Positions 9,201 through 48,700 of a stretch of DNA of 64,000 nt are shown here, piece by piece; position 1 is the first letter of the stretch, and each line of letters opens with the position of its first letter. This DNA is from Amoebophrya sp. A120 (lineage: Eukaryota > Protista > Dinoflagellata), in contig CAJINV010000006.1 in NCBI GenBank assembly GCA_905178155.1, positions 2,297,700 through 2,361,699 of the forward strand, read 5' to 3'. The notes beneath the pieces are model-generated. The model saw nothing but the letters and a program-made list of their open reading frames with translations, ran no database searches and had not been told where the DNA came from. The translations under genes and the position numbers were made by a program.

Positions 9201-12200
9201 ACAACATTTTCGCCATGCTCCTTGTGCAGAACCTGCAAAACCTCCCTCGTAAACCTTTCGTCGGTGGTCTTCACATTTTTGCGAAGCTGCGAGAGGTGGT
9301 CGTCCAAGGTCCGGAAGCAGGACGCAATCGCGGTGGAGCAGAGATACAACGGAGGTGCAGCTTCAGGAGGATGAAACGGAGCGTCCTGGCCGTTTTTCTG
9401 TTCTTCCACGGACGATAGCGAAGATGTTGCCGAAGATGGCAACATCATTATCCCCTCCTTGACATACAGATCGCGTTCGAAGATGAGGAAATTGTCCTGG
9501 AAAAACGACTATGAAGTGCAAAAGTGTCTGGGTCTGGAAGATTCTGAGACTTGTCATGCACGTTTTGCATGGGCCATGATGTCTGTGATGCATGTCCTAG
9601 CATCACAGAATTTGTGAGGGCTCTGTGATGCCTATTCCGCATGGCAAATGCCCTCTCCGCGTGGCCAAAATTGCATTCCCTTTGCTGCTTATGCAATACA
9701 GATTTTTTTGGAAAAATCCAAATGCAGCACCACAAGTTCGGATTCTTCCAGACCCAGACATTTTTGCATTTGATAACGACTGCAGCCGTTCGTTCGCCAG
9801 GTTGATGCACATCTGCTCTAGCGAATTTTCCGCGAGCTGCTCAAACCCGTAGATGTCCAAAATTCCGATGTATTTAGATTTACTCTTGCTGGTGATGTAG
9901 TTGTTTTTGATTTTGCGGTTGAAATGATCATCATGATCATCTAATACTTCTTCCTCATCTTCGTCCCCTTCCCCACAGCTAAAACTAGAACAATTCGAGG
10001 ACACGCAGCTGCTACTTCGAGACCGCGCCGCAGCAGGCTTGTGGTGTTCGCTTGAAGATGTTTTGTTCTCGTCCGGGATGAGTTTGTCGTTCACGCACTT
10101 TTCCACGATGACATATGTGAAAAGTCTGTTGTACAGCGTTTTTCGCAGGGCGGTGAGACACTGGTAAGCTTGCGTTGCGGACCGGGAAACGGTGATCCTT
10201 TCAGTTTCACCGTGGTGGTCTACAACTTTGGTCGTCGACGTGCTGTTTTCATTCTTTTTAAAGCCCCTGCCAGCGCTGATGCTCATTTCCCGGCTGATCA
10301 GTGCTCTTTCCAGATTTTTCCCGCAGATCCCGAGATACTTCGCCGCCACAGAAATCCCGAGTTTCTTCGTATCAGCGCGGACCTCGATGCTGTTGTCGTT
10401 GGTTTTGTTGATGCTTTTGCTTGCGTTGTTGTTCCGGTGTTGTTGTTCAAACGAGTCGCCTGCCTCATCATCATCATCATCATCTCCGCCACCACTAGAG
10501 ACGAATTCCACACCCCCCAGCAACGCTATTCCCTTCAAAAAATCCCAGACTTTCATGGTCTCAAAGTCTTTTTCCAGGTTCAAAACCTTCATCGCTTCCT
10601 CAAATTCTTTATGAACTGCAAAAGTACTATCGCACTTGTAGTAATTGCAGTCATGCATTACAAGTATTTTTCTTCAGGTAAATCCGCATTACAAATTTCA
10701 TTTCTCATGCTGTGGAAATTTGTAATGCATTTATACGAGTTCGATGCTTTTGCATTTCATATTCTTCAAAAAACTTCTGATCGATCTTGTCCTCCTGTTT
10801 CTGGACTCTTCGCGGACTGTTTCTGGTTTTTTCATAGTCCCGAAACATTTTCCAGTCTTGGAGCGTTTCGGGTTCGACTTGTTCATTATCGTTTTTATCG
10901 ACGATGCTTGATTTCTTCATATCCCGACTTTTATGTTGATCTTGATTTCGCGAAAGCAAGTAGTAAAACACGTGAAAACTGTATGCAGGAAAGAAACTGT
11001 GTAAGTGTAACTTTCTTGGAGGAATAGCATCACAAGTTTGCTCTTCAGAACACAGAAAACCTGTCATGCGGAGCTAGTATCAGTGAAAACACGTACGAAA
11101 AGAACCTCTGATGCATGTGTCTAGCATGACAGGTGATAAGTGTTTTACATACGTCTGCAACACAAAGTTACACTTACACAGCTTTTTTCTTGGATAAACT
11201 GCGCTCCCCCATCTCGCTGTTCCACCCGCACACCCGGCTATCCTGTGCAAAAGCATCGCACTCGTAGTAATCGCAGTCATGCATTACAAATCTCCATCCC
11301 AAGGCAAAACAGCATGAGAAATTCCACTTGTCATGCTGAGCTAATTTGTATTGCAATTACTGCTAGTACGATACTTTTGCAATTCATACCGGCTGGATTC
11401 CAGCAAATAGGTTTGAATTTTCGCGGTTTTGAAATCCCCATAGGGCTTGTTGAAGTGCAGAGTCGAGAATTTTCCAAACCGGCTGGAATTGCGATTCCTT
11501 AAAGTGGTCGCGTTTCCAAACGCTTCCAGTAAAATGTTCCCCGCTTGTAATTTTTTGTTGTGGTTTTGTACGATTTGGTGTCCGACCACAGGCTGCAAGT
11601 TGTTTCCAGCATGATCGTCCGCACAAGGCTGGTGTCCACCCCCTTGCCCTTGGAGGTAGTCGGGAATAGAAGTTTTCGCACTAATATTCCGCTCCCTCGT
11701 GATATCGCAAGAAAAAACTGTTACAAGTACACACTTGTAGTCAATTTAGCAACACAAATTTCTCTGCATGAGAGAGAAAACTTGTAATGCAGAAATCCGA
11801 AGGGAAAACACCTATGAAACGAGGCTGCCATGCGTATCCGGCATGACAGAGCTTGTCTGTCTTGCTCGTCCTGCAACACAATGTGTAACTGTAAAACTTT
11901 TTTCTAAACCATACGTGAAGTATTCCACGAGAACCTTTGCGGTTTCGGTTTTCCCCGCACCGCTATCTCCAGAGATGATGAAGGCTTGGGACGAAGAAGT
12001 AGAAGAAGCACCAGCGGAACATGTAGCACCTCCTGTTGTACTCTGGTCTACTTCCTCGCCAGTTCTCGAACCAGAAGTTCTTATCCTCGCGTAACTACCA
12101 CTACCCTGATTCACTATCCGCCTGAGAGCAAGTTCCGCCAACACGTGGGGATGCGGCTTGGTTTGTAGTTGTTTAGAAGTGGTCCTGGTCGATGTTCTTG

Positions 12201-12417
12201 TCCCGTCGTTCGTACAACTGATCTTGCAGTACGGATTCACGGCCAATAACACTGCGGAAGAAACATACGTGTAGATCTCGTTTTGCAGATACCGCTGCTT
12301 CAAGTTCTCCAGAATTTGCTTCTCCGAAAGCTCCTCGAGCTCGCAGCAGTCCTGGACGCTGAGCTGCTGCTTCGGAGTAGAGGTGGAGCTGCTGCCTTTT
12401 GCGGATGGTTTCAACAT
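3252..12417 (-). CDS. Unconventional myosin: motor domain, IQ-like neck, coiled coil, long low-complexity tail; ~2488 aa, 8 introner introns
   Basis: Motifs LLAVNPY, P-loop [26 protein letters not shown] and ILDIYGFE. Excision rebuilds YLLESSR|[12 protein letters not shown]|[15 protein letters not shown]|FFQDNF..YVKEGI and HYIKCFKP|NLEAKP. Spliced length 7467 nt (2489 codons). Confidence 0.93.
5351..5499. mobile_element. Introner family A
   Basis: TIR tatcctgtgcaaaagtatcg; TSD aagcg. Confidence 0.9.
6528..6779. mobile_element. Introner family B
   Basis: TIR ...aaaaatgtctgggtctggaa; TSD cttca; close copy at 45353. Confidence 0.9.
8396..8659. mobile_element. Introner family B
   Basis: TSD cggtt. 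Confidence 0.9.
9510..9775. mobile_element. Introner family B
   Basis: TSD acgac. Confidence 0.9.
10610..10761. mobile_element. Introner family A
   Basis: TSD ttctt. Confidence 0.9.
10982..11196. mobile_element. Introner family G
   Basis: TIR ..ctgtgtaagtgtaact; TSD aactg. Confidence 0.9.
11239..11388. mobile_element. Introner family A
   Basis: TSD ccggc. Confidence 0.9.
11703..11913. mobile_element. Introner, E/G-like
   Basis: TSD cgtga. Confidence 0.85.
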
Positions 12418-13039
12418 TTTCAAGTCGAAAGCGGATTTAGGATTCTGCTTTAATGTTGAGTACTCAACAGGGTTTTCCGAACAAAAAAGGCCAAAAAGAA
12501 AAACTTCTTGTTTGAGTATATATAAAAAGCCTACAACTTACAACGGGGGAGAAAGCCACAATATAGAGAAAGGCGATCCGGAAGAACGTAACGGTAACAT
12601 ACAGCCCATGACCATGGAGTTTGATCGGGAAAACGTCGCGCAGAAAGGGTTCCGAGTCGATCTTTCCATCCTACTCCAATTGATGTACAAGCTCTTCGTT
12701 GACAACACGCGACGAAGGGCAGATCACTTGTCGACGAAGCGAGTAATACGAGAAGATGAAGATCTTGATAGAGCAGGATCTGCTGGTGCGATCATTTACT
12801 CATGTAGTACATGTAGTGGTCGGCGCTCCATGGAGAAGCGAACTTCAATCGAAAGCAGCCAACGAGAACGATGACACGACTCCTACAACTCGGAGGTTTG
12901 TTCATCACCATTGATCACCATCACATCGACGGTGGAAACGAACAACAATAACTGATGGAAAGAAGATCGCAACGGCAAATGTCGAGAGCCACGCGAGTGA
13001 GTATGAACAACATGAACGGGTGAGGAGCTACGTAGCATT

Positions 13040-18300: not shown

Positions 18301-21300
18301 GCGAAGATTTCTATTAGTACGATGCTTTTGCACTTGATAATCGAAAAATCCTGCTTACTCAATTCGACCGCAAACTGGGTCAACTTAGCAAGTTCTGCTG
18401 GGGTTAAACTCTGCGTAAGTTTGTCCAGGTCAACCCAGAAATTATCGGCGAGTTTTACCAGAGTTGTTGGAGTTGTGGGGATCGATGTTGGTGTCGTGGT
18501 GGTAACCGTGACAACTGAAACTGTGGTTGTCGTGGTGGTCGTGGTCGTACTCGTTGGGACGCAGTACCCCAGTGGAGGTGATGTGGTAGAAGTTGGAGTA
18601 AGTTCTTGTGTGCTAGTACTGGTAATTTGTGGCGGCACCGCCAAGGCTTGATGTTCCACCGGTGGCACAGGCAGAGACCCGGCTGTCGTGATGAGATCCG
18701 GGTCCTGGCGCGTGCGGTGAAGGCTTGCATCGTCAGGATCATCAGACGAGGTCGTTACACTTTCACCTTGCACAACTTCCGTCGTGTAGTGAAGGCGGTA
18801 TTCACTTTCTTGTCGTGATGAAAGATGACGATGAGTCTCCTGTTTTGAAGATGTTGCGAAGATGTTTGTGTTCATACTTTCGCGGTTGTTCGACGTTCGT
18901 GCTAGAAAGGAAGACGAGGAACGACCTGAAGATGAACTATGCGCGGACGAGGACTGCGTGGGCGAAGATGTAGTCCCCTGCTCTCCTGCACTGCCGCTGT
19001 CCCCCACCACGACCTCTGGTGCGAAACAGCAAATTTTCAACTGGTCCGCCAAATTACTCTCATTCCTCGCGACGTCAAGAGGAATCGTTGCGTTTTTTTT
19101 CGTGAAGAATTCAGTCGTGTAATTGACTCCCGGTGCGACGGCGCCGAAGTTGGACACGTCATAATGCTCCATCACCGACCCGCACAAATTTTCGTGGCAT
19201 TTCTGTTCCATACCCGGCCAGTTTCGGCAGGACAAGATTGTGGGTGCAACGGTTGTGGTGGTGGAGGTGGTAGTAGTGGTATATGTCGTGGTCGTGGTCG
19301 TTGTTGTCAGTGCTGCGAGCAAATCTGGGTATCTATCATTTTCTGTCGTGATTTCGTCGGTGAAGAGGGGGATGTTGTATCCACAATAAATTTCCCGTAC
19401 ACGTACAAATGCAGTCGCTGCATGACAAAACTTGCCTTCAGTCCTAGTCTAGCATCACAAGTTGGACACTGCAAGTTAGCGAAATTTGTCATGCATTTTG
19501 TACATGTACGGGAAATTTGTATTGCATATGTTGTACTGGTTCGCAACGTAAATGATTTGAACCACCGCTTGGTCCAAACTGTGTAGTAGTTGTTGATCAT
19601 GTTGTAGTATCCTGTGCAAAAGTATCGTACTCGTATGAATGGCAGTCTTGCATTACAGATCCACCATTTTACCTCAATCAGAATTACAAATTCCATTTTT
19701 CCTTTTGCAAAAATTTGTCATGCTATTTGTACTAGTACGATAGTTTTGCAATGCATATGTAGTAGCACAGAATTTGAACCTGTATCCTCGTCGTCGTCCG
19801 AATCTCCTGGTCCTGTCGCAAGAACTACTTCCCTCCCCTCAAACAGCACATCTGTCAATCCCCAGGAGGCAATATCAAATGCAAAAGTGTCTGGGTCTGG
19901 GAGATTCTGAGACTTGTCATGCACGTTTTGCATGAGCCATGACGTCTGTGAAAGATGCATGCCGTAGCGTCACAGATTTTTCGAGGGGTTCTTGATGCCT
20001 ATTTCGCATGACAAATGCCCTATCCGCGAGCGTAGCAAAAATTAGAATTACATTCCCTTTGCTACTCATGCAATACAAATTTTTTTGGAATCCAAATGCA
20101 GCATCACAAGTTGGATTCTTCCAGACCCAGACATTTTTTCATTTGATAGGCAAAGTCTGTCTCCGCTCTCAAATCCGCACTTGCAAACACCGGCCACAAC
20201 ACCTTCCTCAAAGCCGCCGCGTTCGGCAACTGCAAGTCGCGGATCGCAAGTTCGAGGGAGTGGAATTGCCGCTCGCTTTTTTTCCTTGCGTCCAAAAACC
20301 AGGACAGGTTGATCGACGTCGTCTGCACATGTAGTTGATCAGCACCAGGGACGACGTCGAGAGATGATGATGATGATGAAAACGCCGATTCATATGAGGC
20401 CAAGTTCAATCCCAATTCCACAAACTTCTGTTGCAAAAAGCTCTTGTTTTCGTACTCCGGAGCGTCGGTCTTGTTGTCCCGTAAGGCTATTTCTTCTGCG
20501 GCGAAGGAAATTCCGTACGCCGATTTCTCCGCGAAGGGCTCCACGATTTCCAACGGGTGATGCAAATGCTTCCACAACTCTACTCGGTCGGTTAGGAGGG
20601 ACTGGAAGAACGCGGTTTCGACGTTTGATGTTGCGTTGGCGATGTGGCAAATCCCGAAGCTTGCCGGGATGCCCGATGGGATCTCCAGGCTCTTCTCCGC
20701 AAGGGTTAACTGTTGTAGGTAGGTTACGAGCAATTGTTTTAAATCGAACACAGTTTTGTTCCTGAGCTCCCTGTGCGAAAGCTCGGCGAAAGCTACGTGC
20801 TCGAACGTGGACTCCCGCTCCCGCCGTTCCAGTGGCGTCAGCCGTCCGTAGCTGTCTGTTTGGGGGGCGTTTTGTTGCGCGAGTTCTTCACCCGTCATGC
20901 CGTACACGCACTGCTCCAGCTTCGACTTCGACGCGCCGTCGTACTTCAGCGAGAAATAAGGGGATTCTTGTCCTGCGTCGCTCAACACGCCTTCTTCAAA
21001 ATCGAAGTTCAACATAATTTTCCCCTGCTCAGCCTCCGCCTCGACATACCTCGAGTGCGCCTTTTCCTGCACTTCCGGGCGCACTTCTAGCAGCCACTTC
21101 TTTAACCCTGGGTCCATTCGCGCAAATGGGGGGGCAACGCCGGAAATCGAATGCTTTATGTGATCCCCCTTCTCCAGCTTATTCACAAGCGCCAGCTTCT
21201 TCCGAATGTCGTCCCAGGTTTGCACTTTCTCCGCCTGGGTGGTGATTGCGTCTTCCAGAAGTTTGAAAGCCGCGACCTGTCGCTGCAGCCAAGTCAAGGA

Positions 21301-27588: not shown

Positions 27589-27651
27589 AATCTTTTAATG
27601 AAGCAATAGCAAATCTGTATTACAGATTTGCTATTGCTTCATTAAAAGATT
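27589..27651. repeat. Perfect inverted repeat, 31-bp arms with 1-nt loop
   Basis: aatcttttaatgaagcaatagcaaatctgta-t-tacagatttgctattgcttcattaaaagatt. Confidence 0.95.
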
Positions 27652-32200: not shown

Positions 32201-35200
32201 CAGCACTGCGATATCCAGGAAAAAAACTGTGTAAGTGTAACTTTGTAGGTGTAGGTGTAGGAAGAGCAGCATCACAAATTGATTTCGCATTACAGGGAGA
32301 ACCTGTCATGCGCAGGTAGTAAGTATGTGAAAACACGCATGAAAGTGACCTATGACGCACATCCAGCATGACAATCGTATACGCTTGTGCATTTTCTGCA
32401 TCACAGACTATTACACTCACAGAGTTCTCTCCTTGGATATGCGACATCCGCCATTCAATGGGCGAGTTCGCGCGCTTCTTGGGCGGGGAAAAGAGGAAGG
32501 ACTTGCATTTCTGCACGGTCGGCTGCTCCCCATACCCCGGGTTGTTCTCCGCCTGGCACAACCGCTCACAGACCAGGGAGTTCCATTGCAACATGTAACG
32601 GTTGTAAAATCCGTCCTCAGGCTTGGGGACAATCATGGCCTCGAAGTTCAACATTTGCATGTTATCCGCGGAACTACCTCCCGAGGACAACACTTGGCCG
32701 CTTTATGCATTGCAAATATGTCTGGGTCTGGATTTGTGATGCGAGAATTGAAGGACAGGAAGATCTGTAATGCATGAATGCGAAGATGCGCCAGTTTTTT
32801 TGTCGTGCTGGAAGAAGTTTGTCATGCGTTTTATGAATGAATCAGCAACCAGCCTTGCCAAACTTCTGATGCTATTATGCCGTATAAGCGGCTACCCTCT
32901 GAATCTGAAAATGCGAGTGTCAGCAACACAAATTTCCAAACCCAGATATATTTGCAATGCATATGCTTTGTTGTAGACGGACCGATGTCTGGCTCATCCT
33001 CATGGCCATCGCCTTCTGGTCGGCATTTATGGCGCTCTCAACTGTTACATTCTCAACTGTTACATGATTTGTCATGCAAAAACAGCAATTGGGGAAGGGG
33101 CAAGCTTGCAAGTCTTGCATCACAAATTTGGCATGGATTTAGATGCTATTTAGCCCTTCGACAATTTGTCATGCGAAGCAGCTTGATTGTCTTGCGGCTC
33201 ATGGTCATTTTGCATGACCAATCATGTAACAGCTGAGAATGTAACGTTTGAGAACGCCATAGCATTTTGGTACGTCGTGTGATCATGATCGTGGTCATGA
33301 TCGTGGTCGCCCCGACGCTGCTCCGCGAGGGCCTGATAATCCATCCGGGCGGAAGTTCTTTTTGTGCTGTCGAGCTTCTTCGCCTCGAACAGAAACGAGG
33401 ACGCCGCATCAACATCACTGCTGCTGCTTGGAAGTAGACCTTCCAGAAAGGACGACCCAGCCTGTGGCGGGGGGGTCGTGCTGTTCAAATGCGGTTCCAC
33501 TTTCTCCCAAGTCTGCGTGCCGTTGTTGTACAGCATGTCGGACCCGGCAATATGACAGTTCACAACTCCCCCTCCCCCTCATTTGTGTAGCATGAACGGC
33601 AATTATACAAGCGCCAGCCAGAATGCAGGCTGTGCATGACAAATTCAAATTTGCACTCAGGATTGTAGTGCCATTTGGGCAGCTGCCAGAACTTGTCATG
33701 CAAACAGGGCTAAGAGGCACAGCCTGGATTGGGCATTTTGCATGACAAATGAGGGGGAGGGGGAGTTGTGCACATTCATAGGCAATCTGCCGCGGACACA
33801 AGCTCAGATCCGCGCCCTGGATTTTCACGAAGGAGAATATCAAATCCAAAAATCCCTGGAGGTCTGGAACAAAGCAACTTGTCATGCTAAATTTGAATCA
33901 TGCAAAAATTTGCGTTGCATCATTACCAAAATCTGTCCACCTCTGACCTAATCGCGAGGCAGTTTCTCATGCAGGATTGGCATGATACAACTCTCACAGA
34001 ATCTGTCATGCTATGTCCTACATACCAGGCCTCATGGGTCATGGAAAACTCGCATGACAAGTCTGGCATTCTTCCAGACATCCAGGTATTTTTGCAGTTG
34101 ATAGAGAAAGTAGATCCACTAGTCGCGGACGATCGCCTCGTTCGGCCCGTCAACAAGAAAGAGGACGAATTTGTTGAATCTCCCCCGGCGGTCGTTGCAT
34201 TTGCATCCTGCAGCCCTTCGGCAACAGTATCAATGATCTCCTCTTCCTCCTCCTTGAAATACACGGGGCAGAAGGCGGAGCCGGAGTGCTGGCTCCAGTC
34301 GGCCCGCTTCACCCAGGTGTCCCGAGCCGTGGCGAGTAGTGTTAGTGCAGCCGGAGTTGTGGCGTTTATCGAATGCAAATTTATCGATCTGGGTCTGGAA
34401 GATTTTTGCTAGATTTGATGTCCTCAAGCCTGTGTGACATGTACTCAACGAGACTCCGTGAAGATGCGTATCGGCATCGACGGAAAATAAGGTCCTCTAC
34501 TTACGACCTGTGATGCAAAAACGCAGTTTATTGCCATGCGGAAAAATACGCAATAAACAGCGGCCCAAGAATTTGCCAACATGCTCGGCTGCGTATTCTT
34601 CCAGTGCGCCTACGCTTAGCACTCGCTCTTAGCATCACAACTGTCCAGACCCAGACATACTTGCACCTGATAGCGTTGCCCAGGGTTTCGCTGCCACCAG
34701 TCGCGCTGGTCGCATCCGCACCCACACCGCCAGCACCCGCACCGCCGGCACCCGCACCGCCGGCACCCACACCGCCGGCACCCGCACCGCCGGCACCCGC
34801 ACCGCCGGCACCCGCGCCGCCGGCACCCGCGCCGCCGGCACCCGCGCCGCCGGCACCTGCACCGCCGGCACCCGCACCGCCGGCACCCGCACCGCCGGCA
34901 CCCGCGCCGCCGGCACCCGCACCGCCGGCACCTGCACCGCCGGCACCCGCACCGCCGGCACCCGCACCGCCGGCACCCGCACCGCCGGCATCCGCCGCAT
35001 CCGCATCCGCGTCCTCGTGCAGCCTCTGCTCCATGTTTATCTCAATGAACGAAGCAGCACTAGCCGCTGTCTATCGTACGAAAAAAGTGTGTCACTGTAA
35101 GGATCTTGCAAGTTTTGCATCACGCGTTTGCTCTACATCACAGAGAAAATTTCCCATGCAAAGTTCCTAAGGGAAAACACAGCTAAAAATCCACTGTCTT

Positions 35201-38200
35201 GCATGTGTAGCAATACAAATCCTTCTGAGATACTATTTCTGCATTACAAGTTTACAGTGAAACACTTTTTTTCTGCGATACTGTCGGGCTGGTCTGCAGT
35301 GTCATCTCCACACCGTGCGCATTCGTTCCAGAGTCGATGGGGACGCTGCTCTGCTGCAGCTGCTATCCCGGGGAAAAATCCCCCCTCCCCATATCGAAAA
35401 GGCACGTCGCAGAAAATTTGCAATGCTGATTTGCGACCACAAATGATCTCTGTCTTGCAAGAAGGCAACTTCACAGGCTCCGCTGCACTATGCAGGCGTT
35501 TTGTGATGCTGTTTGGCCTACGGCGCAGACGTTTGCGTTTCTCATGCTAAGCGCCTAGGCCAAAACCTCTCAACTCAGGCTTGATGTGGGCCTGCAGTCC
35601 TCTTCAGCAAGACAAATCTGATTTGTGTACTCAAATCCAGCATCACAAATATTGCTTTCGATATGGGGAGGGGGGATTTCTCCTTTTGATAGCTGCACCT
35701 GGTTGTTCAGCAAATGGTGTTCCGACATGGCGTGCGTTTCGTAGTACCTCTGCTGCTATCAAATGTAAAAATGTCTGGGTCTGGAAGAATGCAACCTGTC
35801 ATGCTAAATCTGAAGCATGCGCAAATCTGTGTTGCATGATTACCAAAAGTAGTCGTCCTGTTTTCACCAAGTCGGGAGGGAGTTTCTCATGCGGAATAGG
35901 CATGAGAGAGATCGCACAGAATCTGTCATGCTAGGTCCTGCATTCCAGACCTCATGGGTCATGGAAAACCTGCATCACAAATCTTGCATTCTTCCAGACC
36001 CAGACATTTTTGCATTTGATAGCTGCCACTCCAGCCCGCCGGCTGGGCATTCGAACGTGCTGGAACCATCGTCCGTGATGCCCTCCATCTCGGGATGCAT
36101 GCGCAGCAGGTCGCGCGGCTCACCCTGGTACCCCACGTAAGCCGCGAGCGTCCCGGCGGGCGGAGCGAGCTCCTCACCTTTCGAGGTTCCCGCCACGGTT
36201 TCCGCCGTCACGTTCTTGATTCCCGTGTTTATCATCAGTTCCTCCTCGGGCGTCAGCTGCGCTACGGCTGCTTCCGCATAGAGCAGCCGGCAGAAGGACA
36301 GTCCGGGCAAATAACTGGCACCATCCACTTCCGTCCCGTTCACGCCGACACCGTTGGCGTCTCGGTACCCGACCACCTCGAACCCGTCGCAGTTGGCCGC
36401 AAATTTGTCGCACACACTCGCGCACCAATGGAGGGCCGCTGGGTAGCTGTAGAAAAACCTGCCACCGTTCGCATTGATGAACTGGTTAACCTGCGGACTG
36501 GGAGGCTCCTGGATGCCCGTGACCACGTCGGGAAGCAGCATTTTTTCGATGTTGTCAAATTCGTACAATCCGTCAGCACTCGGACTCGCGTCCGCCTGCG
36601 GCACAATGGGGAAGACAAAGGTAGACTGCGACGCGTAGCTGGTGGCGCAGGTGTATCAAATGTAAAAATGTCTGGGTCTGGAAGATTCTGAGACTTGTCA
36701 TGCATGTTTTGCCTGGGCCATGATGTCTGTGATGCACGCCCTAGCATCACAGATTTTTTGAGGGCCCCGCGATGCCTATTCCGCATGACAAATGCCCTCT
36801 CCGCGTAGCAAAAATTACACTCCCTTTGCTGCTCATGCAATACAGATTTTTTTGGAATCCAAATTTAGCATCACAAGTTCCAATCTTCCAGACCCAGACA
36901 TTTTTACACTTGATAAGGTGCTGTTTGCCACCATGGAGTAGACGTTCGCGCGGGGAAGGTCATGATATCATTTGTAAAAACGTCCCCACCCCAGAGTTGT
37001 AATGCAAATCTGCATGCTGAGAATGTTTCTCATGCGGAGACCCATGAGAGGCAGTCTCTATTCGTGTTGTGGGATTGGTGATGCTAGAATCAGCATGATG
37101 TGCTAGATCTGTGACGCTGCTGAACAAGCTAAACAGGATTACACTGCGAGGCCAAACTTGTCATGCGCGACAGCAAAAGCTGACAGATTTGTCTAGCAGA
37201 TTTCCCAGCTTGACTCTGGTCGTGGGGACACGTTTTTACTCAGGATACATGAGTCACCTCCTTCAGTTCCCCCGTCGCGCTGTCGTGAACCATGCGCGGC
37301 GGAATGGTATCAAATGCAAAAATGTCTGGGTCTGGAAGGATGCAACTTGTGATGCTGAATTTGGATTCTACAAAAATCTGTATTGCGTGAACAGCAAAAG
37401 AGGTCCAGTTTTTGCCACGGCGAGAGGGCATATCTCATGCGGTACAGGCATCAGGAAGCCCTCACAAAATCTGTGATGCTAGAGCCTGCGTCACAGACTT
37501 CAGGAGTCATGCAAAGTGTGCATGACAAACCTTGCATCCTTCCAGACCCAGACATTTTTGCAGTTGATAAATGGGGTAGCAGGACCACTTGTTCCGCTGG
37601 CGGATCAGATTGAAGTAATGGTATCCCAGCTGCGCTGTCAGCGCTTGGCACTTGTGTTTCACGTAGTCCGCTGTGTAGGCTCCCTGCATCTTCTCCTTTT
37701 GTTGCTGATAGTACGCGTAGTTCAGGTCCTCGTCCTTTGGTAAATCGTACCATTTCACGGTCAGATCGTCCGCGACGTCTTCCAAATCCTGCATCGGGGT
37801 GAGGTGCCCCTCGGCGTTTTGGTAGTACGCCGGGAACAAATTGGATCCTGCACCCGCAGCTTCTTCAGCGCCGTCATAGATCACTGCGACCGGAGGGGTG
37901 GTCAAAATGTACTGCGTCAAATTTAAATCGATAGTAGTGTCGTTCTGCAGGAGCTTTTCGACCGCGGTCAAGTAAAATTCTCTCGCGGCCAATGCCGCCG
38001 AGGTACTCAGGTCCACGCGGGGGATGATGGAGTAAGAGTCGTCGTAGAGATCGTCGGTGCATCAAATGCAAAAATGTCTGGATGTCTGGAACATAGCAGC
38101 AACTTGTCATGCTAAATCTGAATCATGTATAAAATCTGTGTTGCATGATTACCAAAAGCTGTTCACTTTTGACCTGATCGCGACGCAGTATGTCATGCAG

Positions 38201-38838
38201 GATAAGCATGGTAGAACGTCGCTCACAGAATCTGTCATGCTATGTCCTACATACCAGACCCGATGGGTCATGGAAAACCTGCATGACGAGTCTGGCCTTC
38301 TTCCAGACCCAGACATTTTTGCATTTGATACGGTACGCCAGATTTCGTCGGCCTGGGTTGGGAAGGCGCAGGGAGGTGCTTGTTCCTCCTCAGAGGCTCC
38401 TTCGGCATTCTGATTCTCGTCGTGTTCATGGTCAGCATATCCCGCATTGTGATCATCCCTCGTCTCCGTGCGCTGCACGATCAGGTGTTTTTGTTTTTCC
38501 ACCTGGATTTTGCTGACAAAAGAATCTTTCCTCTCCTTTCCAGCACGAGAACTACGAGAGGACATCACTAGGCCGTAGCTGCTCTTCTGCGACGTAGTTG
38601 TGGCCCTCCTCCTGCTTGTTTCATCCACCTCGTCGTTCCCGCCCTTGTTTATTCGCCTCTCCGCCGCGACGGCGGCAAGCTGCGTCTTCCGGTAGCGGTC
38701 GACACGAAACGAGGGTCGCTTGCTCGCGTCGGCCACCGTCTGTACGGCGGCAACTGTGCTGGGACCTCCATTTCCCAGTGGGGAGGAGGTGACGATCGCA
38801 ATTGCGGCGAGTCCCGTGGTGGAGATGCTGTTGCTCAT
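29251..38838 (-). CDS. Type-I membrane adhesin-like protein (~1699 aa) with PAN/apple-like domains and a (GGAGA)n tract; 16 introners plus 1 GT-AG intron
   Basis: Hydrophobic N-terminus MSNSISTTGLAAIAIV; apple-like WCASVCDKFAANCDGFEV..CRLL and CERLCQ..CKSFLF..QCWL; TM CIAIGCIAIPLVICLVVILLV; spliced length 5100 nt, divisible by 3. Confidence 0.8.
30337..30611. mobile_element. Introner family G
   Basis: TAT..GTA; TSD ctctc. Confidence 0.85.
30939..31157. mobile_element. Introner family D
   Basis: TSD tgctc. Confidence 0.9.
31250..31508. mobile_element. Introner family B
   Basis: TSD tagaa/cagaa. Confidence 0.9.
31669..31920 (-). other. Canonical GT-AG intron
   Basis: GTACTTG...AAACAG; joins EGRE|PTAEETQRSACCTF. 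Confidence 0.75.
32212..32439. mobile_element. Introner family G
   Basis: TSD tgcga. Confidence 0.9.
32704..32963. mobile_element. Introner family B
   Basis: TSD cgctt/tgctt. Confidence 0.9.
33028..33261. mobile_element. Introner family C
   Basis: TSD gcatt. Confidence 0.9.
33551..33780. mobile_element. Introner family D, opposite orientation to 30939
   Basis: TSD ggcaa. Confidence 0.9.
33838..34103. mobile_element. Introner family B
   Basis: TSD gagaa. Confidence 0.9.
34367..34672. mobile_element. Introner family B
   Basis: TSD gcgtt. Confidence 0.85.
34724..34990 (-). repeat. 15-bp coding tandem repeat (~18 units) encoding (GGAGA)n
   Basis: Repeating gcaccgccggcaccc. Confidence 0.95.
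35072..35280. mobile_element. Introner family E
   Basis: TIR ..gaaaaaagtg..tcactgtaa; TSD ctgtc. Confidence 0.9.
35364..35691. mobile_element. Introner, singleton TIR type
   Basis: TIR aaatcccccctccccatatcgaaa; TSD gctgc. Confidence 0.9.
35757..36021. mobile_element. Introner family B
   Basis: TSD gctgc. Confidence 0.9.
36654..36915. mobile_element. Introner family B
   Basis: TSD aggtg. Confidence 0.9.
36966..37247. mobile_element. Introner family F
   Basis: TSD catga. Confidence 0.9.
37308..37569. mobile_element. Introner family B
   Basis: TSD aatgg. Confidence 0.9.
38060..38330. mobile_element. Introner family B
   Basis: CAT..ATA; TSD cggtg/cggta. Confidence 0.85.
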
Positions 38839-39770: not shown

Positions 39771-42700
39771 CTACCTTGCCTGGAGCTCTTTCACAGCTTG
39801 GTCGTAAAAAGTTGTCGCGTAGTCTTTTTTGACCCAGTACCGTTTACACTCCCACCACGCCCCTGCCGCCGCGTTGATGGGCCCAAAAGCGGTTATGAGC
39901 GACCGGGTATGCCGCGACGAGATCGTGCACGGGTGTCCGTCCGCCATATCCTTCCGGATGCCAGGGCTGTTCTGTTGTACGGTCACGTGGATCTGCGTTA
40001 CCGGCTCCAGCGTGCGCTCGGCTTATCCTGTGCAAAAGTATCGTACTCGTACTAATTGCGTTTATGCATTACAAAACGTTGTGATAAGGCAAATCCGCAT
40101 TACAAAGTCAATTTGTAATGCTAAGTCAATTTGTAATGCAATCTATACTAGTACGATGCTTCTGCATTTCATACGGCGTACTCGAAGACAAACACATCCT
40201 CACGGCCCTCCATGTTCCCCGTTCCCCCGGTGAAGGACAAGGTCAAATGCGCGTCCTGATTGACGATAAACGTGTACCCCTGCGGTTTGATGTTGTGCTC
40301 GCACTTCTCCCAGCCGCGAACCGACCCCCAGGTCCCGTCTGGCGCGCTCGGCGCCCCGTGCCGCCAACAGCCGGGCGTCACGGCACCGCCGCTCCAGCCC
40401 TTGCCGTGGCCTATGAAGGGCACGTCGAACCATCGGTCATGGTTGTAGACTCTTAACATCCCGCGGTCTGGGCTGTGGATGCGCACGATCCGGAGCTCCA
40501 AGTCCCGGGGGCAGTAGTGGAGACCCTGAGAGGGGGCCGGCTGAGTCCTGCAACGGCTGGTGTCGAAAACCCGGGCCGCGTCGGTGGACATGAGGAACCT
40601 GTCGTGTAGCAAAACGAGCGAATCCGACCGCGCCCGGCCCCGCTCATGCTGTGACCAGAAGTTGATTTGCGGGGTTTGCCAGTCCGTACCCCCGTGGAAG
40701 GACGAAAGCCGGTAGTCGAAGTGGGAAGCACAGAGTCCCCCCGTGTCTTCGTCGTTATTCAAGTTGCAATGGTGGTTAAAGGACACAACCATGGCGGGGT
40801 TGTGATGCTCTTCTGCGGAAGTGTAAAATTTGTTGTTCACAAATTCCACGTGGCCGCTGCCTATCCTGTGCAAAAGTATCGTACTCGTATAAATGCAAAT
40901 ATTGCATTACAAATCTCGTACTCGTTCCCAAGGCAAATCTGCATTACAAATCTCATTTCTCATGCTGAGGAAATTTGTACTGTACTTATACGAGTACGAT
41001 GCTTTTGCAATTCATACTGCCCCCCGGTCCTTCCATCTGCTGGTTGTTCGCCATAAAAAGTATCAAATGTAAAAATGTCTGGGTCTGGAAGAATGCAACT
41101 TGTCATGCTAAATCTGAAGCATGCAAAAATCTGTGTTGCATGACTACCAAAAGTCGCCCAGTTTTGACCAAGTCGGGAGGCAGTTTCTCATGCAGGATAG
41201 GCATGAGAAAGATCGCACAGAATCTGTCATGCTAGGTCCTGCATTCCAGACCTCATGGGTCATTGAAAAGCTGCATGACAAGTCGCGCATTCTTCCAGAC
41301 CCAGACATTTTTACATTTGATAAAAAGACAGTCCCGGCTATCCCAGAGAAAAAAGCTGCTAAGTACCGACGGCACATTTGCATTTCTGATGCAACTGCTA
41401 ATGCAAAAAGAACAAACACAAACAGGCAGTAAATAAAAATCTGTCATGGGCAGCAGGCCCGGATCGCCATGGTGCTTAGGCCTAAATTAGCTTGCTGGAA
41501 ACAAGCGGATAGGATTTTCGAAACTACATGCGGAGGCAGGTTTTGGCAATCGATGAGAAGAACGGGCGGATAGGATTTTGAAAAAGGCAATGAGTAGACC
41601 GGGATGAAAGTGTGCCGCTTTGTTTATTTTCTGCGCAAGCGATTTGCCGTTCCGGGCCCGAGTCGCGGGTCGTTCACTTTTGCCGTTACAAATGTGGCAA
41701 CTACATGCTAGCAGCTTTCTTCTCCGGGATCATACCGACAGAACGGCCCAGCTCCCTCCCCCCTTCGGTACGTTTTCCAGTAGAAGCCCTTCAAGTTCCC
41801 AAAAGCCACGTAATATCCTGTGCAAAAGTATCGTACTAGTATAAATCGCAATACAAATTAGCTCAGCATTACAAACTTAAATTTGTAATGCTGATTTACC
41901 TTAACAACTAGATTTGTAATGCATAACTGCAATTAGTACGAGTGCGATACTTTTGCACTGCATACGTAGTTCTCGAACGTGATGTCCCCCATAGAGTAGG
42001 TTCCCGCCGCGAAGTCGTTGAAGGCTTCAAAGTATCAAATGTAAAAATGTCTGGGTCTGGAAGGTTCCGAGATTTGTAATGCAGTTTTTCCAAGCTCCAC
42101 CAAGTCTGGAATGCCGGGTCTAGCATCACAGGATCTGCAGCCCCTTGGTGATGCCTGTTCTGCATGACAAATGCCCTCTCAGCATGGCCAGAAATGGGCA
42201 CCTTTTGAGAGCCACGCAACACAGAGTTTTATGCGATTCACAACATGCATCACAAGTTCGAATCCTTGCAGACCCAGACATATTTGCAATCCATACAAAG
42301 TGGTTTTTCACCAAAATGGGACTCGCGTTGTCCAACCCCTCCCGCGTAAAGGGGAGACACGAGCTATCGCATTCAAAAACATCCCGACCTCCCCATAGTT
42401 GTACTTATTATGCAAATCTGCATGCTAAGAATGTTTGTCATGCGGAGCTCCATAGGAAGCATTTTCTTTTTGTGTTTCGGAATTTGTCATGCTCTAATCG
42501 GCATGGTATACTAGATCTTCTATGCTGCTGAACTACCTCAAACAGTAGTACGCTCCGAGTCCAAATTTGTCATGCAAAACAGCCAAAGCTTGTGGATTTG
42601 TCTAGCCGACTCCCCATCTTGACTCTGGGGTGCGTGGGGGCGTTTTTACATAGGATACGAGCCCCAGTCGGATACGAACCCGTTTCGGTCGGTGCGGACC

Positions 42701-45700
42701 TTTATGCATTGCAAAAGTATCGCACTTCTCGTATAAATGCATTACAAATTTCCTAAGGATGAGAAATAAAATTTGTAATGCAGAGTTGCCTTGCAAAGAA
42801 GATTTGTAATGCGAGACTGGCATTTGTACGAGTACGATACTTTTGCACAAGATAACCTTGCGCGGCCAGTGGTTGTTGGTGCCGTACCAGCCGATATGGA
42901 TTGCAAAAATGTCTGGGTCTGGAAGATTGCAACTTGTCATGCTAAATCCGAACCATGCAAAAGTCTGTGTTGCATGAGTGCCAAAAGCTGTCCACTTTCG
43001 ACCAAGTTGGGAGGGAGTTTCTCATGCAGGGTAGGCATGGAAGAGACCTCACAGGCTCTGTCATGCTAGGTCCCGCATTCCAGACCTCGCGGGTCATGGA
43101 AAACCTGCATGACAAGTTCACACTCTTCCAGACCCAGACATTTTTGCGTTTCGTACCCGAATCCGTTGTTGTTGTGGAAACTGTTGTCTTCAAACCTCCC
43201 GTATCAAACGCAAATATGTCATCTGGGTCGGGGAGATTGCAAGACTTGTCATGCTCTGATGATAGGACGAGAAAAAGATCTGTCATGCATATTGCGCTAC
43301 TGCGCTATTTTTTTGTATTATGCAAAAACGCTGTTTCCCATGCAGTATACGCAAGACCTAGTCGCTCAGAAACTTGTCATGCGCGTCCCCATGTTGGAGG
43401 TCGCTCACGATTCGCAAACTAGCATCACAAGTTTCCAGACCCAGACATATTTGCAGTGGATATCCCGTAGGGCAGATTCTGCTGGCAAATCCGGCCGGCC
43501 GCGGCTTCGATTCCGCGCCCGCCGTGGCCCCCCTGGTCGTTCACGTAAAAGGCGTTTTATGCTGTGCAAAAGCATCGTACTCGTAGTAATCGCAGTCATG
43601 CATTACAGATCTCCTTCTTAAACTAAATCCACATTACAAATTCCATTTTTCATGCTGAGGGAATTTGTCATGCGATTTCTACTAGTACGATACTTTTGCA
43701 ATGCATACGTTCTCGTGGCCGACAATGTGGTTGTTGATAATGTCGTTCGTGGGGCTTAGCAGGTACAGGGCCGACTGCTCTTTAAAATCCGAGTCGACGT
43801 TTTCCTTCACGTTCGCGGAATTTTCAAATCTGCAGTTCGCTCTTTTCAGGCAAACGAGGAAATTATTGGACAAAACGTTGTTTTTCTCGTTCCCATCCTC
43901 CACATACAGGCTCACGCCCCGCACATTCACGACAACATTCTGATCGACCAGGGCGTTTTGCGTTCCGTGCACCGTGATCCCCTTGGCCGTGCCGTCCTCG
44001 ACCACGTTCCCCACAAACCGGCAATTCTCCTGCCGCGCACAAAAGCCGACTTGGTGCAGGTGCAAGCAGTAGCTACCCCGGTACCGCCTCCCGCAGTTTT
44101 CGATTCTCGTGTGCAAAATTTCCATCGCGCCAGGCTCTCCACTCCAACCCGTCATCTGCATCGTCGTGATTCCCTGCGACCCCTTTTCCGGGTCGTGGTT
44201 GAGATACGGGTAAAACGGCCCCGTGATGACGATCCCCCGCGATAGGTTCCCCACTTCGGCTTGCAAGGGGATCAGATCGCGGATCCACTTGCCCCGCTAT
44301 CCCACGAAAAAAGTGCTTCACTGTAAGGATTTTGCAGGTTTTGCATCACAAGTTTGCTTCACATGACAGAGAAGGAGCTTTGCCATGCGAGGTTCCTAAG
44401 CGAAAACCCAGCTAAAAATCGACTGTCTTGCATGTTGAGCATGCGTAAGTAGCAAGACAAGCACTTCTAAGATTGCACTTTCTGCATTACAGGTTTACAG
44501 TGAAACAGTTTTTTTCCTGCGATACCCGCCGCATCCGGTGTAACCCCCAGTCCGTCTCGATTTTGCAATAGTTTCTCGAGTATCAAATGCAAAAAAGTGG
44601 CTGGGTCTGGAAGGATGCGAACTTGTGATGCATACTTGGATCACACAAAAATCTGTCATGCTTAGACAGGAAAGGGAGCTCCTTTTCCTGTCGCCGAAAG
44701 AAGGTGTTTGTCATGCGGATTGAGCATTGGGAAACCGTCTGCAAACCTGTGACGCGAGGCCTCGCATGGCACACCTTCCATGTCAAGCAGACACAGCATC
44801 ACAAACCTCAGCAATCTTCCAGACCCAGACATATTTGCATTTGATATCGAGCACTGGGGCGTCGCATCCGTCCCCCGGCCCTTTTGGCTCCAGCAAATTT
44901 CCGGCCCGTTGTAAATCCGGTCGACTTATCGAATGCAAAAATGTCTGGGTCTGGAAGAATGCAAGTTTGTCATGCTTGTCTGGCATGACTCGAGAATCTG
45001 TCCTGCATAGGCACGAAAGAGCCCTCTTAACTGTCAACATGCGAGAAGGCAGTCTGCCACGCGGAATACGTCTGACATGGCAGCCACATCAAAATTTGTC
45101 ATGCATAGCTGCGTATTGCGGCGCATCTATCAACATTCACTTAGACTTATATTTATAGCATTACAAGTTTCTAGACCCAGACACTTTTGCATTTCATACG
45201 ACTTTGGTGAGCTGCTTTTTCTCGCTCTCCGAGTCCTCGGGCGCTTCCCGCCCACTCGTGCCCAAGTGCTCCCCGCCGGTGGCGGCGACGACAATGGAGT
45301 CCCCCACCTGCCAATTGTCGCACGCCAAAACCGTCATGGTTTTCGCCCATTGTATCAACTGTAAAAATGTGTGGGTCTGGAAGAATGTATGTTTGTCATG
45401 CTTGTCTGGCATGACTCTTAAGTCTGTCATGCACCTTGCCCAAGAGCTCCATTTTTCTGTGATGCAGAAACGCAGTCTGTCATGCAGAATAGGCAACACC
45501 TAGAAGCTCAGAAACTTGTCATGCTGAGCCAGCACTTGTGGCCTCATCATGAGACGCCACCCAGCATCACAAGTTTCCAGACCCAGACATTTTTACATTT
45601 GGTACATTGCGGGCTGTCCTCGATCAGGAGCGACCAGGAAGTTTTCGGTCGTCCATACAAGCGAACAATCCCCCCTTCTGACATCAGCTCCCCTATCAAA

Positions 45701-48700
45701 TGCAAAAGTATCTGGGTCTGGAAGAATCCGAACTTGTGATGCTGCATTTGGATTCCAAAAAAATCTGTATTGCATAAGCAGCAAAGGGAGTGCAATTTTG
45801 GCTACGCGGAGAGGGCATTTGCCATGCGGAATAGGCATCGCAGAGCCCTCAAAAAGTCTGTGATGCTAGGGCATGCATCACAGACATCATGGCCCATGCA
45901 AAACGTGCATGACAAGTCTCAGAATCTTCCAGACCCAGACATTTTTACATTTGATATCTCCACTTTGGAGGCAATTGTCTGGACGGGGGTGGGGGTCGAA
46001 CCCGCAGAAATCGTGGTGCAGAATGATTCTCACGTTCTCCACACCGAGTACTGGATTCTTGTCCACACCGGCAACGAACTTCCCGCTGCTGGACACGTGG
46101 ATTCTTCTCGCCTCGATTTGCGTGTTGGACACGAGTTCCAAATAACCGTCGACGGTGATGAAACTGCTATGACACTGCACGACTCCCCATTCCCCTCATT
46201 TGTCATGTGAAATACCAAATCCAGGCTGTGCCTCTTGGCACTGCTTGCATGACAAACAAATCCGGAAGCCCAAACAGTACTACACTCGTCCTGGGCAACT
46301 TTGTCATGCAAAACCGGCATTCTTGCTGACGCTTGTATTGCCGTAGTTCATGCCATACAAATGAGGGGGAGGGGGAGTGGTGTACTCCCATAACTGCCCG
46401 CACAGCGCGTGAAGACGTCCCCGGACTGGAAAATCACGCACTCGTCGCGGGCGATCCGTATCAACTGCAAATATCGATCTGGGTCTGTGTAATTATTGCG
46501 AGATTTGTCATGCTAGTCTAGCATGTCTCTGAACTTTGTATTGCGCGGCCGCAAAGCGCTTCTGTTCTTGCCTGTCATGCAAAAACGCAGTTTCTCATGC
46601 GGGGTACGCAAATCAGAATCACGGAAAAACTTGTCATGCTTGGCAGCGCATCAGAGTGTGCTCACTATTTGTTCCTTTCTTGCATCACAAGTTTCCAGAC
46701 CCAGACATATTTGCAGTGGATAACCCGACAAGTGTGCCAATTCCCCGCACTGTAAATCATCCTTGCGCAGTTCCGTTTCAGCTCGTTATCAACCACGACC
46801 TCGGGCTCGGGGGCGGCAGTGGTTATTATAGTTGGGCGACTGGTGGTCGTAGCAACGACTACAGGTATAATCGTTGGGTTCCTCGTCTCAGTGGTCGAGC
46901 CAGTGTCTATAATAGTTGGGGTATCAAATGCAAAAATGTCTGGGTCTGGAAGGATTGGAACTTGTCATGCGATTTCTGGAACAGGCAAAAATTTGTGTTG
47001 CATAAGCACCAAAAACTTCCCATTTCTTGCTACGAGGCCTGTGCAAAACCTGTAATGCTTTTGCGTGCATTAGAGACCAGTTGCGTGATCCAGCAGATAC
47101 ATGACAAACTCCTGCAATCTTCCAGACCCAGACATTTTTGCATTCGATATGGGGTTCTCGTCGTGGTGCTTGGACGTACTTGTGGCAATTTTCCTGGGGG
47201 GGCGCGAGTCGTGGTTCTTGGGGTCGTGGTGACCACGAGAGGATTTGCGGTATTGACAGTAGTCCCCGTCGTCGTGTCTTTCAGTAGATTCTGTCCGGGA
47301 CTCGTGGTGGTCTCTGGAATATGCAACTGTGAGGATCGAAATTGACAAAATCGAAAAGTTTGTCATGCATCAAATGCACGACGCGAAATACGTGTGTTGC
47401 AGAGCAGGCAAGTGAGGCCGATTGTAAGCCTGTTTGGGGTTATAGCTCGCGCTGCTAAAGCAGCATGAGAGAATCAGCCTTCTTTGCCTAAACAGCATTA
47501 CAAACTGGATTTGCACACCACCAGAATTTGTCATGCGCCACTTAGAAACTGAGTTCGAACTGGAATCCATTTTATGCATGGCAAATCATTTTGATTTTGT
47601 CAATTTCGATTCTGACACTTCCATACGGAACTGGGTATTCGTATTGTCCTTGCCCGGCACTGCCTTCTACTTCTTCGCCGCTTGCACCAGGAAGATGCTG
47701 ATTTGCAGTTGCACCAATCGCGTTGGCCTCTCCTCCGGTGGCCGGTAGTTGTTCTTGTACGCGCGTGTTTCTACTTTCCTCCTCCCCCCCGTAGCAAAAC
47801 GCGCAGGCCTGCGCCTCTCCCGGCTCACGAGGACGCGGCATGGTGACCAATTTGTCACTCTTAGACGGCTCCCGGTACAGTTCCCCCGTGGTTCTCATTT
47901 GTTCAGGCATGTTATTATCGCCCGACGGCGGTGGTCGTGTGACGCCATCTACATAACGACTCGCAGGTACTAGTACGGCTGCACCAGATCGTCCCGCTGC
48001 GCGTCCTCCTAGGTAGGCTTTTGCGTGATGCGCTGCTGGATTAGGATTTTTGGTACTCTCGTTTACGATTTCTTGTTGACCACGCCCAAGACCTGCTACC
48101 TCCTCGCGCACTCCTGCAACTTCTGAACTAGGACTCGGAAGAGCCACTTTATCATCATCAATCTTCACGACCTCCGGAAAGAATTGGCTACTTCCATGAT
48201 CTCGTCGGGGACTCAAAATCATTATCTCTTCGTACCACGCACTTCTCTGTGCAAGTGGAAACGCGACACACGAGAATTCCCGCATGGAGCACTGAAACTT
48301 CGTGCACATATTCTGCATCTGCTGTGGTTCTGGCGTTTCGCCCACGTGGTCCGGTAGAAGTTCTTGAGGCACCAGCCCCAGCGGCTCTGACGAGGGGACC
48401 AACGATGTTGATCCGTGTGCTGGCCTTTTCATCCGCCCTCTGATTGCGCACTTTTCGAGACAGGCTTTGCACGAAGATTCTTTTGCAATTTCATCCTCGA
48501 GACTGTGCATCCTGTCCTTTTCCATCGGAGACAAAAAAGGACCGGCGATCGTGGTCGTGGCCATGGGTTGCACTTTTTTTTCGGTTGCGTCTGCAATAGT
48601 CGAGGGCAGCTGCACAGGGCGGGCCGTACGAAAGTATTCGGAATTTGTTCTTCCGGTCGTCGTGTCTTGTTCTCCTGATGTAATCGAAAAGACATCGACG

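Follow-up and report, generated by a model that had tools for sequence, protein, structure and literature searches.

Among the introns of Amoebophrya sp. A120, more than 60% are non-canonical, and a subset of these have been attributed to repeats called introner elements (Farhat et al., 2021; BMC Biol 19:1, PMC7789003). This report concerns a 64,000-nucleotide stretch of that genome, hereafter the window (assembly GCA_905178155.1, contig CAJINV010000006.1, positions 2,297,700 to 2,361,699 of the forward strand), whose host genes lie on the minus strand and include a myosin-like gene and the genes of the annotated proteins P0007 and P0024 (Table 1). Dispersed through it are 66 elements, 149 to 420 nt long, that resemble miniature inverted-repeat transposable elements (MITEs). 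An earlier note, made from the letters of the sequence, had claimed that one and the same element works here as an intron in both orientations. The analysis upholds that claim and leads to the following reading: the repeats are the non-canonical introner elements of A120, removed as the element plus 5 nt whichever way they point, and likely by means of the same end-to-end RNA hairpin. We put the probability of this reading at roughly 0.72.

The elements and their two orientations

The window is densely filled with short repeats, and pairing the two commonest terminal cores revealed elements that end in TAT...ATA, carry terminal inverted repeats (TIRs) some 35 nt long and are flanked by a target site duplication (TSD) of 5 bp; the inverted repeats begin, among others, with TATCAAATGCAAAA..., TATCCTGTGCAAAA... 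and TATGCAGGAAAGAAA.... A strict, motif-free scan, which required terminal TA...TA, complementarity at 18 or more of 24 terminal bases and a perfect 5-bp duplication in the flanks, returned 38 elements against 0, 0 and 0 in three shuffles, and a relaxed version (16 of 24 terminal bases, four of five duplication bases) returned 61 pairs against 0, 1 and 0. The working set of 63 elements, named here by their first positions, consists of the 61 relaxed pairs minus the mis-registered 26707, plus 17613, 17940 and 53381, whose duplications have decayed; three more (44293, 41334 and 38055), recognised as segments skipped in RNA-like contigs, bring the total to 66. The TSD is 5 nt long everywhere in the window, perfect in the 38 strict pairs and matching at four or five of five positions in the 61 relaxed ones, and it shows no base preference across the 63 elements. 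TIRs, a TSD of fixed length, multiple copies in both orientations and a length too short for a transposase together mark these elements as MITEs.

The earlier note had placed nine of the copies discussed below (9510, 19873, 36654, 45694, 30939, 46168, 33551, 44927 and 53381), and each lies where it had been placed (Table 1). The strand of an element is taken as the orientation of its interior. Interiors were compared after removal of 30 to 35 nt from each end (35 nt for pairwise identities), because the inverted termini could otherwise align both ways. On this measure the three inversions that had been proposed are borne out. Copy 45694 matches the reverse complement of 9510, 36654 and 19873 at 94.9, 93.3 and 84.1% (54.5, 56.4 and 54.9% on the same strand); 33551 matches that of 30939 and 46168 at 76.7 and 72.8% (54.2 and 56.4%), and 53381 that of 44927 at 81.2% (48.3%). 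Over the ten pairs tested, global interior identity was 46–56% on the same strand and 69–95% in reverse complement, and an alignment of four gene-sense and four antisense strands reached a mean column identity of 80%.

An all-against-all orientation graph of the 63 elements contained 0 inconsistent edges, and seven families proved to be present both ways, with 24 copies in one direction and 23 in the other. Their copies per orientation are 4 versus 10 in family 1, 4 versus 7 in family 2 (all eleven in Table 1), 6 versus 2 in family 3 (six copies including 44927, against 23612 and 53381), 3 versus 1 in each of families 4 (26409, 30939 and 46168 against 33551) and 5, and 1 versus 1 in each of families 7 and 8. 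With numbers this small, no per-family orientation bias is significant (p about 0.18 for 4:10, 0.55 for 4:7 and 0.29 for 6:2).

The 24 families share identical terminal trinucleotides and an identical 5-bp duplication, yet differ in their inverted repeats, a sequence pattern which suggests that one type of transposase may mobilise them all. A120 introners with integrase-like homology are mentioned by Gozashti et al. (2025), and such homology would fit a 5-bp stagger. A motif GCATGAC(AA), with the variants GCATTAC and GCATCAC, and its complement recur in the interiors of 22 to 23 of the 24 families (e.g., at 9548-9740), with 112 occurrences in 10.7 kb of element interiors versus 27 in the remaining 49.5 kb, and often build small local hairpins. 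This motif could be a subterminal transposase-binding repeat or an RNA signal. The gene-sense strand excess of GCAT[GTC]AC is not significant, with more in 32 elements, fewer in 18 and equal numbers in 13 (sign test, p = 0.065).

Restored frames and absence from RNA-like contigs

Deletion of each element with one TSD copy yields minus-strand frames of 2156, 1434, 1200, 964, 802, 668, 591 and 352 codons, whereas the longest plus-strand frame after element deletion has 490 codons. Fifty-eight of the 63 elements lie inside minus-strand frames of at least 150 codons after removal (40024 being one of them only at the register obtained for it, k≥1, see below), in support of the earlier statement that the hosts are all on the minus strand and their frames restored. 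For element length L, the remainder of L + 5 on division by three is 0, 1 and 2 in 13, 23 and 27 elements, and this spread over all classes implies that the elements are not translated in frame. In the myosin-like gene, cutting out 9510 with 5 nt fuses frames of 297 and 391 codons, and the myosin homologues P0004 and P0005 of other organisms span the junction gap-free. Copy 53381 sits in the 352-codon frame, which spans seven elements and is open at every register.

P0007 and P0024, annotated proteins of A120, map to the minus strand with 100% identity in all long exons. After removal of 20 segments of element plus 5 nt, 1498 of the 1500 residues of P0007 are recovered, and the two that differ fall at imperfect duplications; removal of six elements and one GT...AG intron recovers all 842 residues of P0024. 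The GT...AG intron has a pyrimidine-rich 3′ end, and canonical and hairpin introns are processed in one transcript.

Of the contig sets compared with the window, X1 is DNA-like and X3, X4, X5 and X8 are RNA-like. Thirty elements are absent as exactly the element plus 5 nt from RNA-like contigs and/or annotated proteins: 23 are missing from RNA-like contigs (19 at listed joints or pieces, four by length accounting) and 26 from proteins, the two sets overlapping. A 1982-nt RNA-like contig spans 41807-47319 (X3, X4 and X5), and all 15 joints listed in these three sets skip exactly L + 5 (40862, 41814, 42033, 42365, 42703, 42895, 43202, 43558, 44293, 44581, 44927, 45353, 45694, 46459 and 46922). 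Records 9 and 10 of X3 add five skips, those of 38055 and 40024 and, by length accounting, those of 36654 (100 nt are left between 36648 and 37570 in record 9), 36966 and 37308; 41061 and 41334 are skipped in RNA-like contigs with six letters remaining between them. The DNA-like contigs of X1, on the other hand, cross exon-element borders (e.g., 35997-36678) with 0 differences.

Both orientations of one family are absent from the same transcript contig. The 1982-nt contig lacks 42033 as well as the oppositely oriented 42895 and 45694 of family 2, and it lacks family 1 copies of either direction (41814 and 42703 versus 43558). Another RNA-like contig is without 36654 and 37308, which have opposite family 2 orientations (length accounting), and removal of family 7 is validated both ways across two genes (31250 and 44581).

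Three places within the P0007 gene have particular features. At 41323-41338, a micro-exon of about 11 nt (ACAGTC plus duplication bases) lies between the elements 41061-41322 and 41334-41734, both of which are accurately removed; exon definition cannot work at such a size. At 41320-41764, a contig that retains the element 41334 has a depth of 4.7-8.2 versus 101-232 for the spliced contig, and looks like unspliced precursor RNA. The element 47320-47625 is spliced in P0007, the 1982-nt spliced contig ends at its edge, and one nucleotide, at 47322, differs from the window.

Hairpin, cut register and competing explanations

Standard splice borders were scanned at all six offsets and rejected: in 54 of the 63 elements, none of the six registers offers GT-AG, GC-AG, GA-AG or AT-AC. 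Because of this, the repeats are assigned to the published non-canonical introner elements and not to polar GT-AG introns. What the elements do have in common is a predicted fold. In gene sense, 17 or more pairs join the first 40 nt to the last 40 nt in all 63, with a median fold-energy z of -6.5 versus mononucleotide shuffles. The predicted folds of the oppositely oriented 36654 and 45694 reach -125.4 kcal/mol (z -10.7) and -126.4 kcal/mol (z -9.4), and their stems, of at least 34 bp, run from the first U of the element to its last A in both orientations alike. As the termini are inverted repeats, insertion either way gives 5′-UAU(C/G)... and its complement at the ends of the segment, and orientation independence thus likely follows from the terminal hairpin. 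The earlier note had reasoned that the signals must be palindromic; a symmetric signal of the TIR-hairpin kind would fit the lack of canonical borders and the identical terminal stem predicted both ways. That note had also allowed for two-way internal motifs; the internal GCATGAC-type motif occurs in both directions, and its role as a splicing signal finds no support here.

The position of the cut can be read where the two copies of a TSD differ, as k, which counts the bases of the duplication that the mRNA retains from the copy lying upstream in gene sense. RNA gives k≥4 for 46459 (protein likewise), k≥3 for 45694, k≥2 for 41334 and k≥1 for 40024, 41814, 43558 and 38055; the upper bound k≤4 comes from RNA for 42895 and from annotated protein for 31250 and 32704. 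Only k = 4 fits all ten imperfect TSDs. At this value the intron would consist of N5 of the upstream duplication, the element and N1-N4 of the downstream one, so that the cuts would fall 1 nt before the stem and 4 nt after it in either orientation. As 1 + 4 equals the 5-bp stagger of the transposase, the RNA machinery would exactly erase the insertion footprint. Tentatively, and at somewhat less than even odds, we propose that the borders are not variable and follow from pure geometry, lying 1 nt ahead of the TIR stem and 4 nt beyond it, with any flank and in either orientation. If so, any exon insertion of the whole MITE superfamily would be born neutral, and UAU(G/C), then occupying +2 to +5 of the intron, would act as a 5′ splice site that dispenses with the invariant G.

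The mechanism suggested by these data would have the terminal stem and the UAU(C/G) terminus as its excision signal, with both cuts at a constant spacing from the stem (1 nt ahead of its 5′ base, 4 nt past its 3′ base); since 1 + 4 is the length of the duplication, splicing would undo the insertion. The hairpin would pair the two ends, and the enzyme would be the spliceosome without U1 that Farhat et al. (2021) proposed, which we consider the more probable of the agents.

Several points weigh against this reading or its parts. The RNA nature of X3-X5 and X8 is guessed, and their contigs carry no strand, read counts or splicing efficiency; the raw RNA runs X9 and X10, of the same species label, gave 2 matching reads each. 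Removal of 9510, 19873, 33551 and 53381 is supported by open frames, to which homologue alignments are added for 9510; 33551 falls outside the coding sequence annotated for P0024, and the annotated P0001 model does not extend past the 9510 junction. Five of the 63 elements (23612, 24494, 26409, 59083 and 62455) lie outside minus-strand frames of at least 150 codons. Besides being spliced, 47320 also seems retained (contigs 47290-47409 and 47413-47622, at a depth of 37-39 in X3), and is possibly a frequently retained intron. The register comes from ten introns, four of them tightly informative, with two of the three upper bounds derived from annotation, and Farhat et al. (2021) call the borders variable or unknown relative to the hairpin. 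The cutting enzyme and the need for the hairpin are inferred.

Among the alternatives, the best survivor keeps the same elements and the guiding hairpin, and replaces the spliceosome by a structure-specific endonuclease at the stem base and an RNA ligase, so that the intron would leave in linear or circular form and without a lariat. The mixed borders agree with it, as no border nucleotide is conserved (N5 is G in 22, A in 16, T in 15 and C in 10 elements, with a comparable mixture at the last base of the intron), and so do the very stable terminal stem of at least 34 bp and the 11-nt micro-exon, at which exon definition is ruled out; euglenid introns with TIRs and TSD-like repeats moreover leave as circles, by a route that may be independent of the spliceosome (Mob DNA 2024;15:15, PMC11282704). 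However, UAU(G/C) at +2 to +5, as obtained at k = 4, resembles a 5′ splice site minus G+1, canonical and hairpin introns share the P0024 gene, the same repeat organisation is reported in 15% of the canonical A120 introns, and A120 has a nearly complete spliceosome without U1 (Farhat et al., 2021). We regard this route as unlikely, at something over one chance in five.

The elements could also be introners of the ordinary kind described from Aureococcus and Polarella, in which the element or its TSD supplies GT/GC...AG both ways to a standard spliceosome. Classes of introners that give rise to introns whichever way they insert are indeed described (Roy et al., 10.1101/2020.10.14.339549), and nine of the 63 elements have some standard dinucleotide option, a GT-AG option being found in only two copies of the window, 42703 (at k = 3) and 53381 (whose TSD is imperfect). 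The other 54 have none in any register, the single option of 45694 (GA-AG at k = 1) is excluded by its RNA marker of k≥3, and the ends at the listed joints are non-standard (CT..TA, AC..AT, CA..TA and so on, with just one CT..AC). This explanation is largely refuted, and its probability is very low. Equally improbable is removal at the DNA level, by internal eliminated sequences of the ciliate kind or polymorphic empty sites, with the RNA-like contigs being insertion-free DNA: the guessed kind of runs X3-X5 would allow it, and precise transposon excision or an empty allele also loses the element and one TSD copy, but X1 exon-element junctions have the depth of unique flanks (41-47 versus 44.6), contig depth in X3 ranges from 4.7 to 101 among neighbouring genes, a 20-fold difference of the kind that RNA should show, the same runs also contain lower-depth contigs that retain elements, and the introns were validated with RNA-seq junctions (Farhat et al., 2021).

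Host genes, wider meaning and known systems

The myosin-like gene was recognised by Pfam Myosin_head matches on minus-strand frames between 12537 and 6771, and the myosin-head piece matched Amoebophrya proteins. The annotated A120 protein P0001 (9776-12003; 310 amino acids, “partial”) begins within the myosin head region, and its end coincides with the 9510 junction, while the open frame and the homologues run on for at least 1850 codons beyond; the public model seems to have been cut short by the hairpin intron 9510. Between 12000 and 16000 the G+C content is 0.57 versus about 0.48 elsewhere, with overlapping open frames on both strands, none of which has a Pfam match. A Pfam search of the open reading frames of the G+C-rich 12-15 kb stretch and of several long minus-strand frames gave no match beyond Myosin_head. 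The 802-codon minus-strand frame (38850 to 34531) contains, at 34643-35070, some 28 tandem copies of a 15-nt unit, which would encode a five-residue protein repeat.

Table 1. Elements, host genes and introns of the window. Strand is that of the element interior or of the gene; joints are between window positions in RNA-like contigs; k counts the duplication bases that stem from the upstream copy.
Feature	Position	Strand	Remarks
Family 2	9510..9775	+	Reference orientation; in myosin gene; TSD ACGAC, perfect
Family 2	19873..20148	+	Reference orientation; TSD GGCAA; within 1200-codon minus frame after removal
Family 2	33838..34103	-	Inverted; within 964-codon minus frame
Family 2	35757..36021	-	Inverted; within 802-codon minus frame
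Family 2	36654..36915	+	Reference orientation; TSD AGGTG
Family 2	37308..37569	-	Inverted; missing from same X3 contig as 36654
Family 2	41061..41322	-	Inverted; 11-nt micro-exon, then next element; joint 41060>41735 with ACAGTC between; P0007 intron
Family 2	42033..42295	+	Reference orientation; TSD CAAAG; joint 42027>42296 skips 268 = 263 + 5 (X3, X4, X5); P0007 intron
Family 2	42895..43155	-	Inverted; TSD GCCGA/CCCGA; joint 42890>43157 skips 266 = 261 + 5; mismatch gives k≤4
Family 2	45694..45956	-	Inverted, flagged in the earlier note; TSD TCCCC/TCTCC; joint 45688>45957 skips 268 = 263 + 5; k≥3
Family 2	59083..59345	-	Inverted; outside any frame of at least 150 codons
Family 4	30939..31157	+	Reference orientation; P0024 intron
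Family 4	33551..33780	-	Inverted; open frame only (964 codons); 15 nt upstream of annotated P0024 start
Family 4	46168..46392	+	Reference orientation; P0007 intron; not in 1982-nt contig (length accounting; pieces 62 nt apart)
Family 3	43202..43462	+	Joint 43196>43463 skips 266 = 261 + 5
Family 3	44927..45198	+	Reference orientation; joint 44921>45199 skips 277 = 272 + 5
Family 3	45353..45604	+	Joint 45347>45605 skips 257 = 252 + 5
Family 3	46459..46722	+	TSD ATCCG/ACCCG; joint 46453>46723 skips 269 = 264 + 5; k≥4 from RNA and protein
Family 3	53381..53631	-	Inverted; poor TSD (3/5); open frame only
Family 1 (150-nt)	40024..40173	-	Inverted; X3 record 10 joins 40018 to 40174, skip 155 = 150 + 5; k≥1
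Family 1 (150-nt)	40862..41016	-	Inverted; joint 40856>41017 skips 160 = 155 + 5
Family 1 (150-nt)	41814..41964	+	Reference orientation; joint 41807>41964 skips 156 = 151 + 5
Family 1 (150-nt)	42703..42854	+	Reference orientation; joint 42697>42855 skips 157 = 152 + 5; ends CT..AC at cut +2
Family 1 (150-nt)	43558..43707	-	Inverted; joint 43552>43708 skips 155 = 150 + 5
Family 7	31250..31508	+	TSD TAGAA/CAGAA; P0024 intron; k=5 mismatches protein, hence k≤4
Family 7	44581..44846	-	Inverted relative to 31250; joint 44575>44847 skips 271 = 266 + 5
Single-copy element	32704..32963		TSD CGCTT/TGCTT; P0024 intron; k=5 mismatches protein, hence k≤4
Family A-type element + one TSD copy, 276 nt	38055..38330		Decayed 3′ end; X3 record 9 joins 38054 to 38331
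Element + one TSD copy, 401 nt	41334..41734		TSD GTCGG/GCCGG in gene sense; k≥2
Element + one TSD copy, 232 nt	44293..44524		TSD GCGGG; joint 44292>44525 skips 232
Myosin-like host gene	3255..12537	-	Interrupted by 5351, 6528, 8396, 9510, 10982 and 11239; 2156-codon frame after removal
Host gene of P0024 (842 aa)	29254..33536	-	6 element introns + 1 canonical intron
Ordinary GT...AG intron, 252 nt	31669..31920	-	In P0024 gene, alongside six hairpin introns
Host gene of P0007 (1500 aa)	39774..49170	-	20 element introns

If the hairpin reading is right, this one 64-kb stretch with its 66 elements would present transposon insertions that leave messages by their shape and not by splice-site sequence. 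With strand irrelevant to removal, any insertion into a transcribed exon could be harmless from the start, which would help to explain how the elements could grow to 17% of the A120 assembly (Farhat et al., 2021), and removal by shape would explain the failure of standard gene finders on such genomes. How the borders are chosen, left open by Farhat et al., could be approached through the cut register read from imperfect duplications.

The canonical introners of Aureococcus, Polarella and Micromonas share their transposon hallmarks (TIRs, a fixed TSD and near-identical copies) with the elements of the window and differ from them in their splice sites, as the TSD is unconstrained here and the border dinucleotides are arbitrary. 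The introners of Aureococcus anophagefferens reportedly create introns bidirectionally (Huff et al., 2016, as cited in the Roy preprint). In Polarella glacialis, introners are described as DNA transposons with TIRs and TSDs, of which several classes form introns in either orientation with an orientation bias, using GT/GC/GA...AG sites that the element itself carries or that are recruited from TSDs of specific sequence (Roy et al., 10.1101/2020.10.14.339549). Opposite-orientation insertions are considered in the methods of Gozashti et al. (2022), and Gozashti et al. (2025) note that single A120 genes hold tens of introner introns, with a filter that aligns 5′ ends with 5′ ends.

The nearest functional analogue is found in the nonconventional introns of euglenids, which likewise have non-canonical borders, terminal pairing that draws the ends together, TSD-like repeats and a suspected MITE origin (Mob DNA 2024;15:15, PMC11282704). 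They belong to a different lineage, and their pairing is short and involves CAG/CTG at +4 to +6 and -8 to -6, whereas the introns of the window start with N-U-A-U-(C/G) at the inferred register, lack that motif and have a stem of about 35 bp; circular release after conventional splicing is a further euglenid feature (PMC11282704). The internal eliminated sequences of ciliates are also transposon-derived, with TA-rich termini and a precise, frame-restoring removal. These, however, leave the DNA, whereas the elements of the window are kept in DNA-like contigs and are missing from RNA-like ones only.

The closest correspondence is with the introner elements of A120 itself, for which Farhat et al. 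(2021) describe inverted repeats of TAT followed by 7 less-conserved nucleotides and at least three A, direct repeats of 3-5 nt and a hairpin, in a genome in which they found no U1 small nuclear RNA; they put the number of element introns at about 30,000. The window elements show every testable trait of that description (the inverted-repeat rule, direct repeats, the predicted hairpin and, in most elements, the absence of GT-AG), and there are likewise many families, tens of introns per gene, canonical introns alongside and absence from mRNA. Two differences concern the uniform 5-bp TSD of all families in the window, against 3-5 nt in the paper, and the single inferred cut register, against a variable or unknown border position. 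A term search of the paper's main and supplementary text gave no mention of element orientation, and a literature search found no later mechanistic paper on Amoebophrya splicing. Nothing in the window is different in kind from the introner elements of Farhat et al.; the note's claim is a correct reading of a system already described, to which the orientation census, the proof of both orientations in one transcript, the uniform 5-bp duplication and the single cut register are modest additions.

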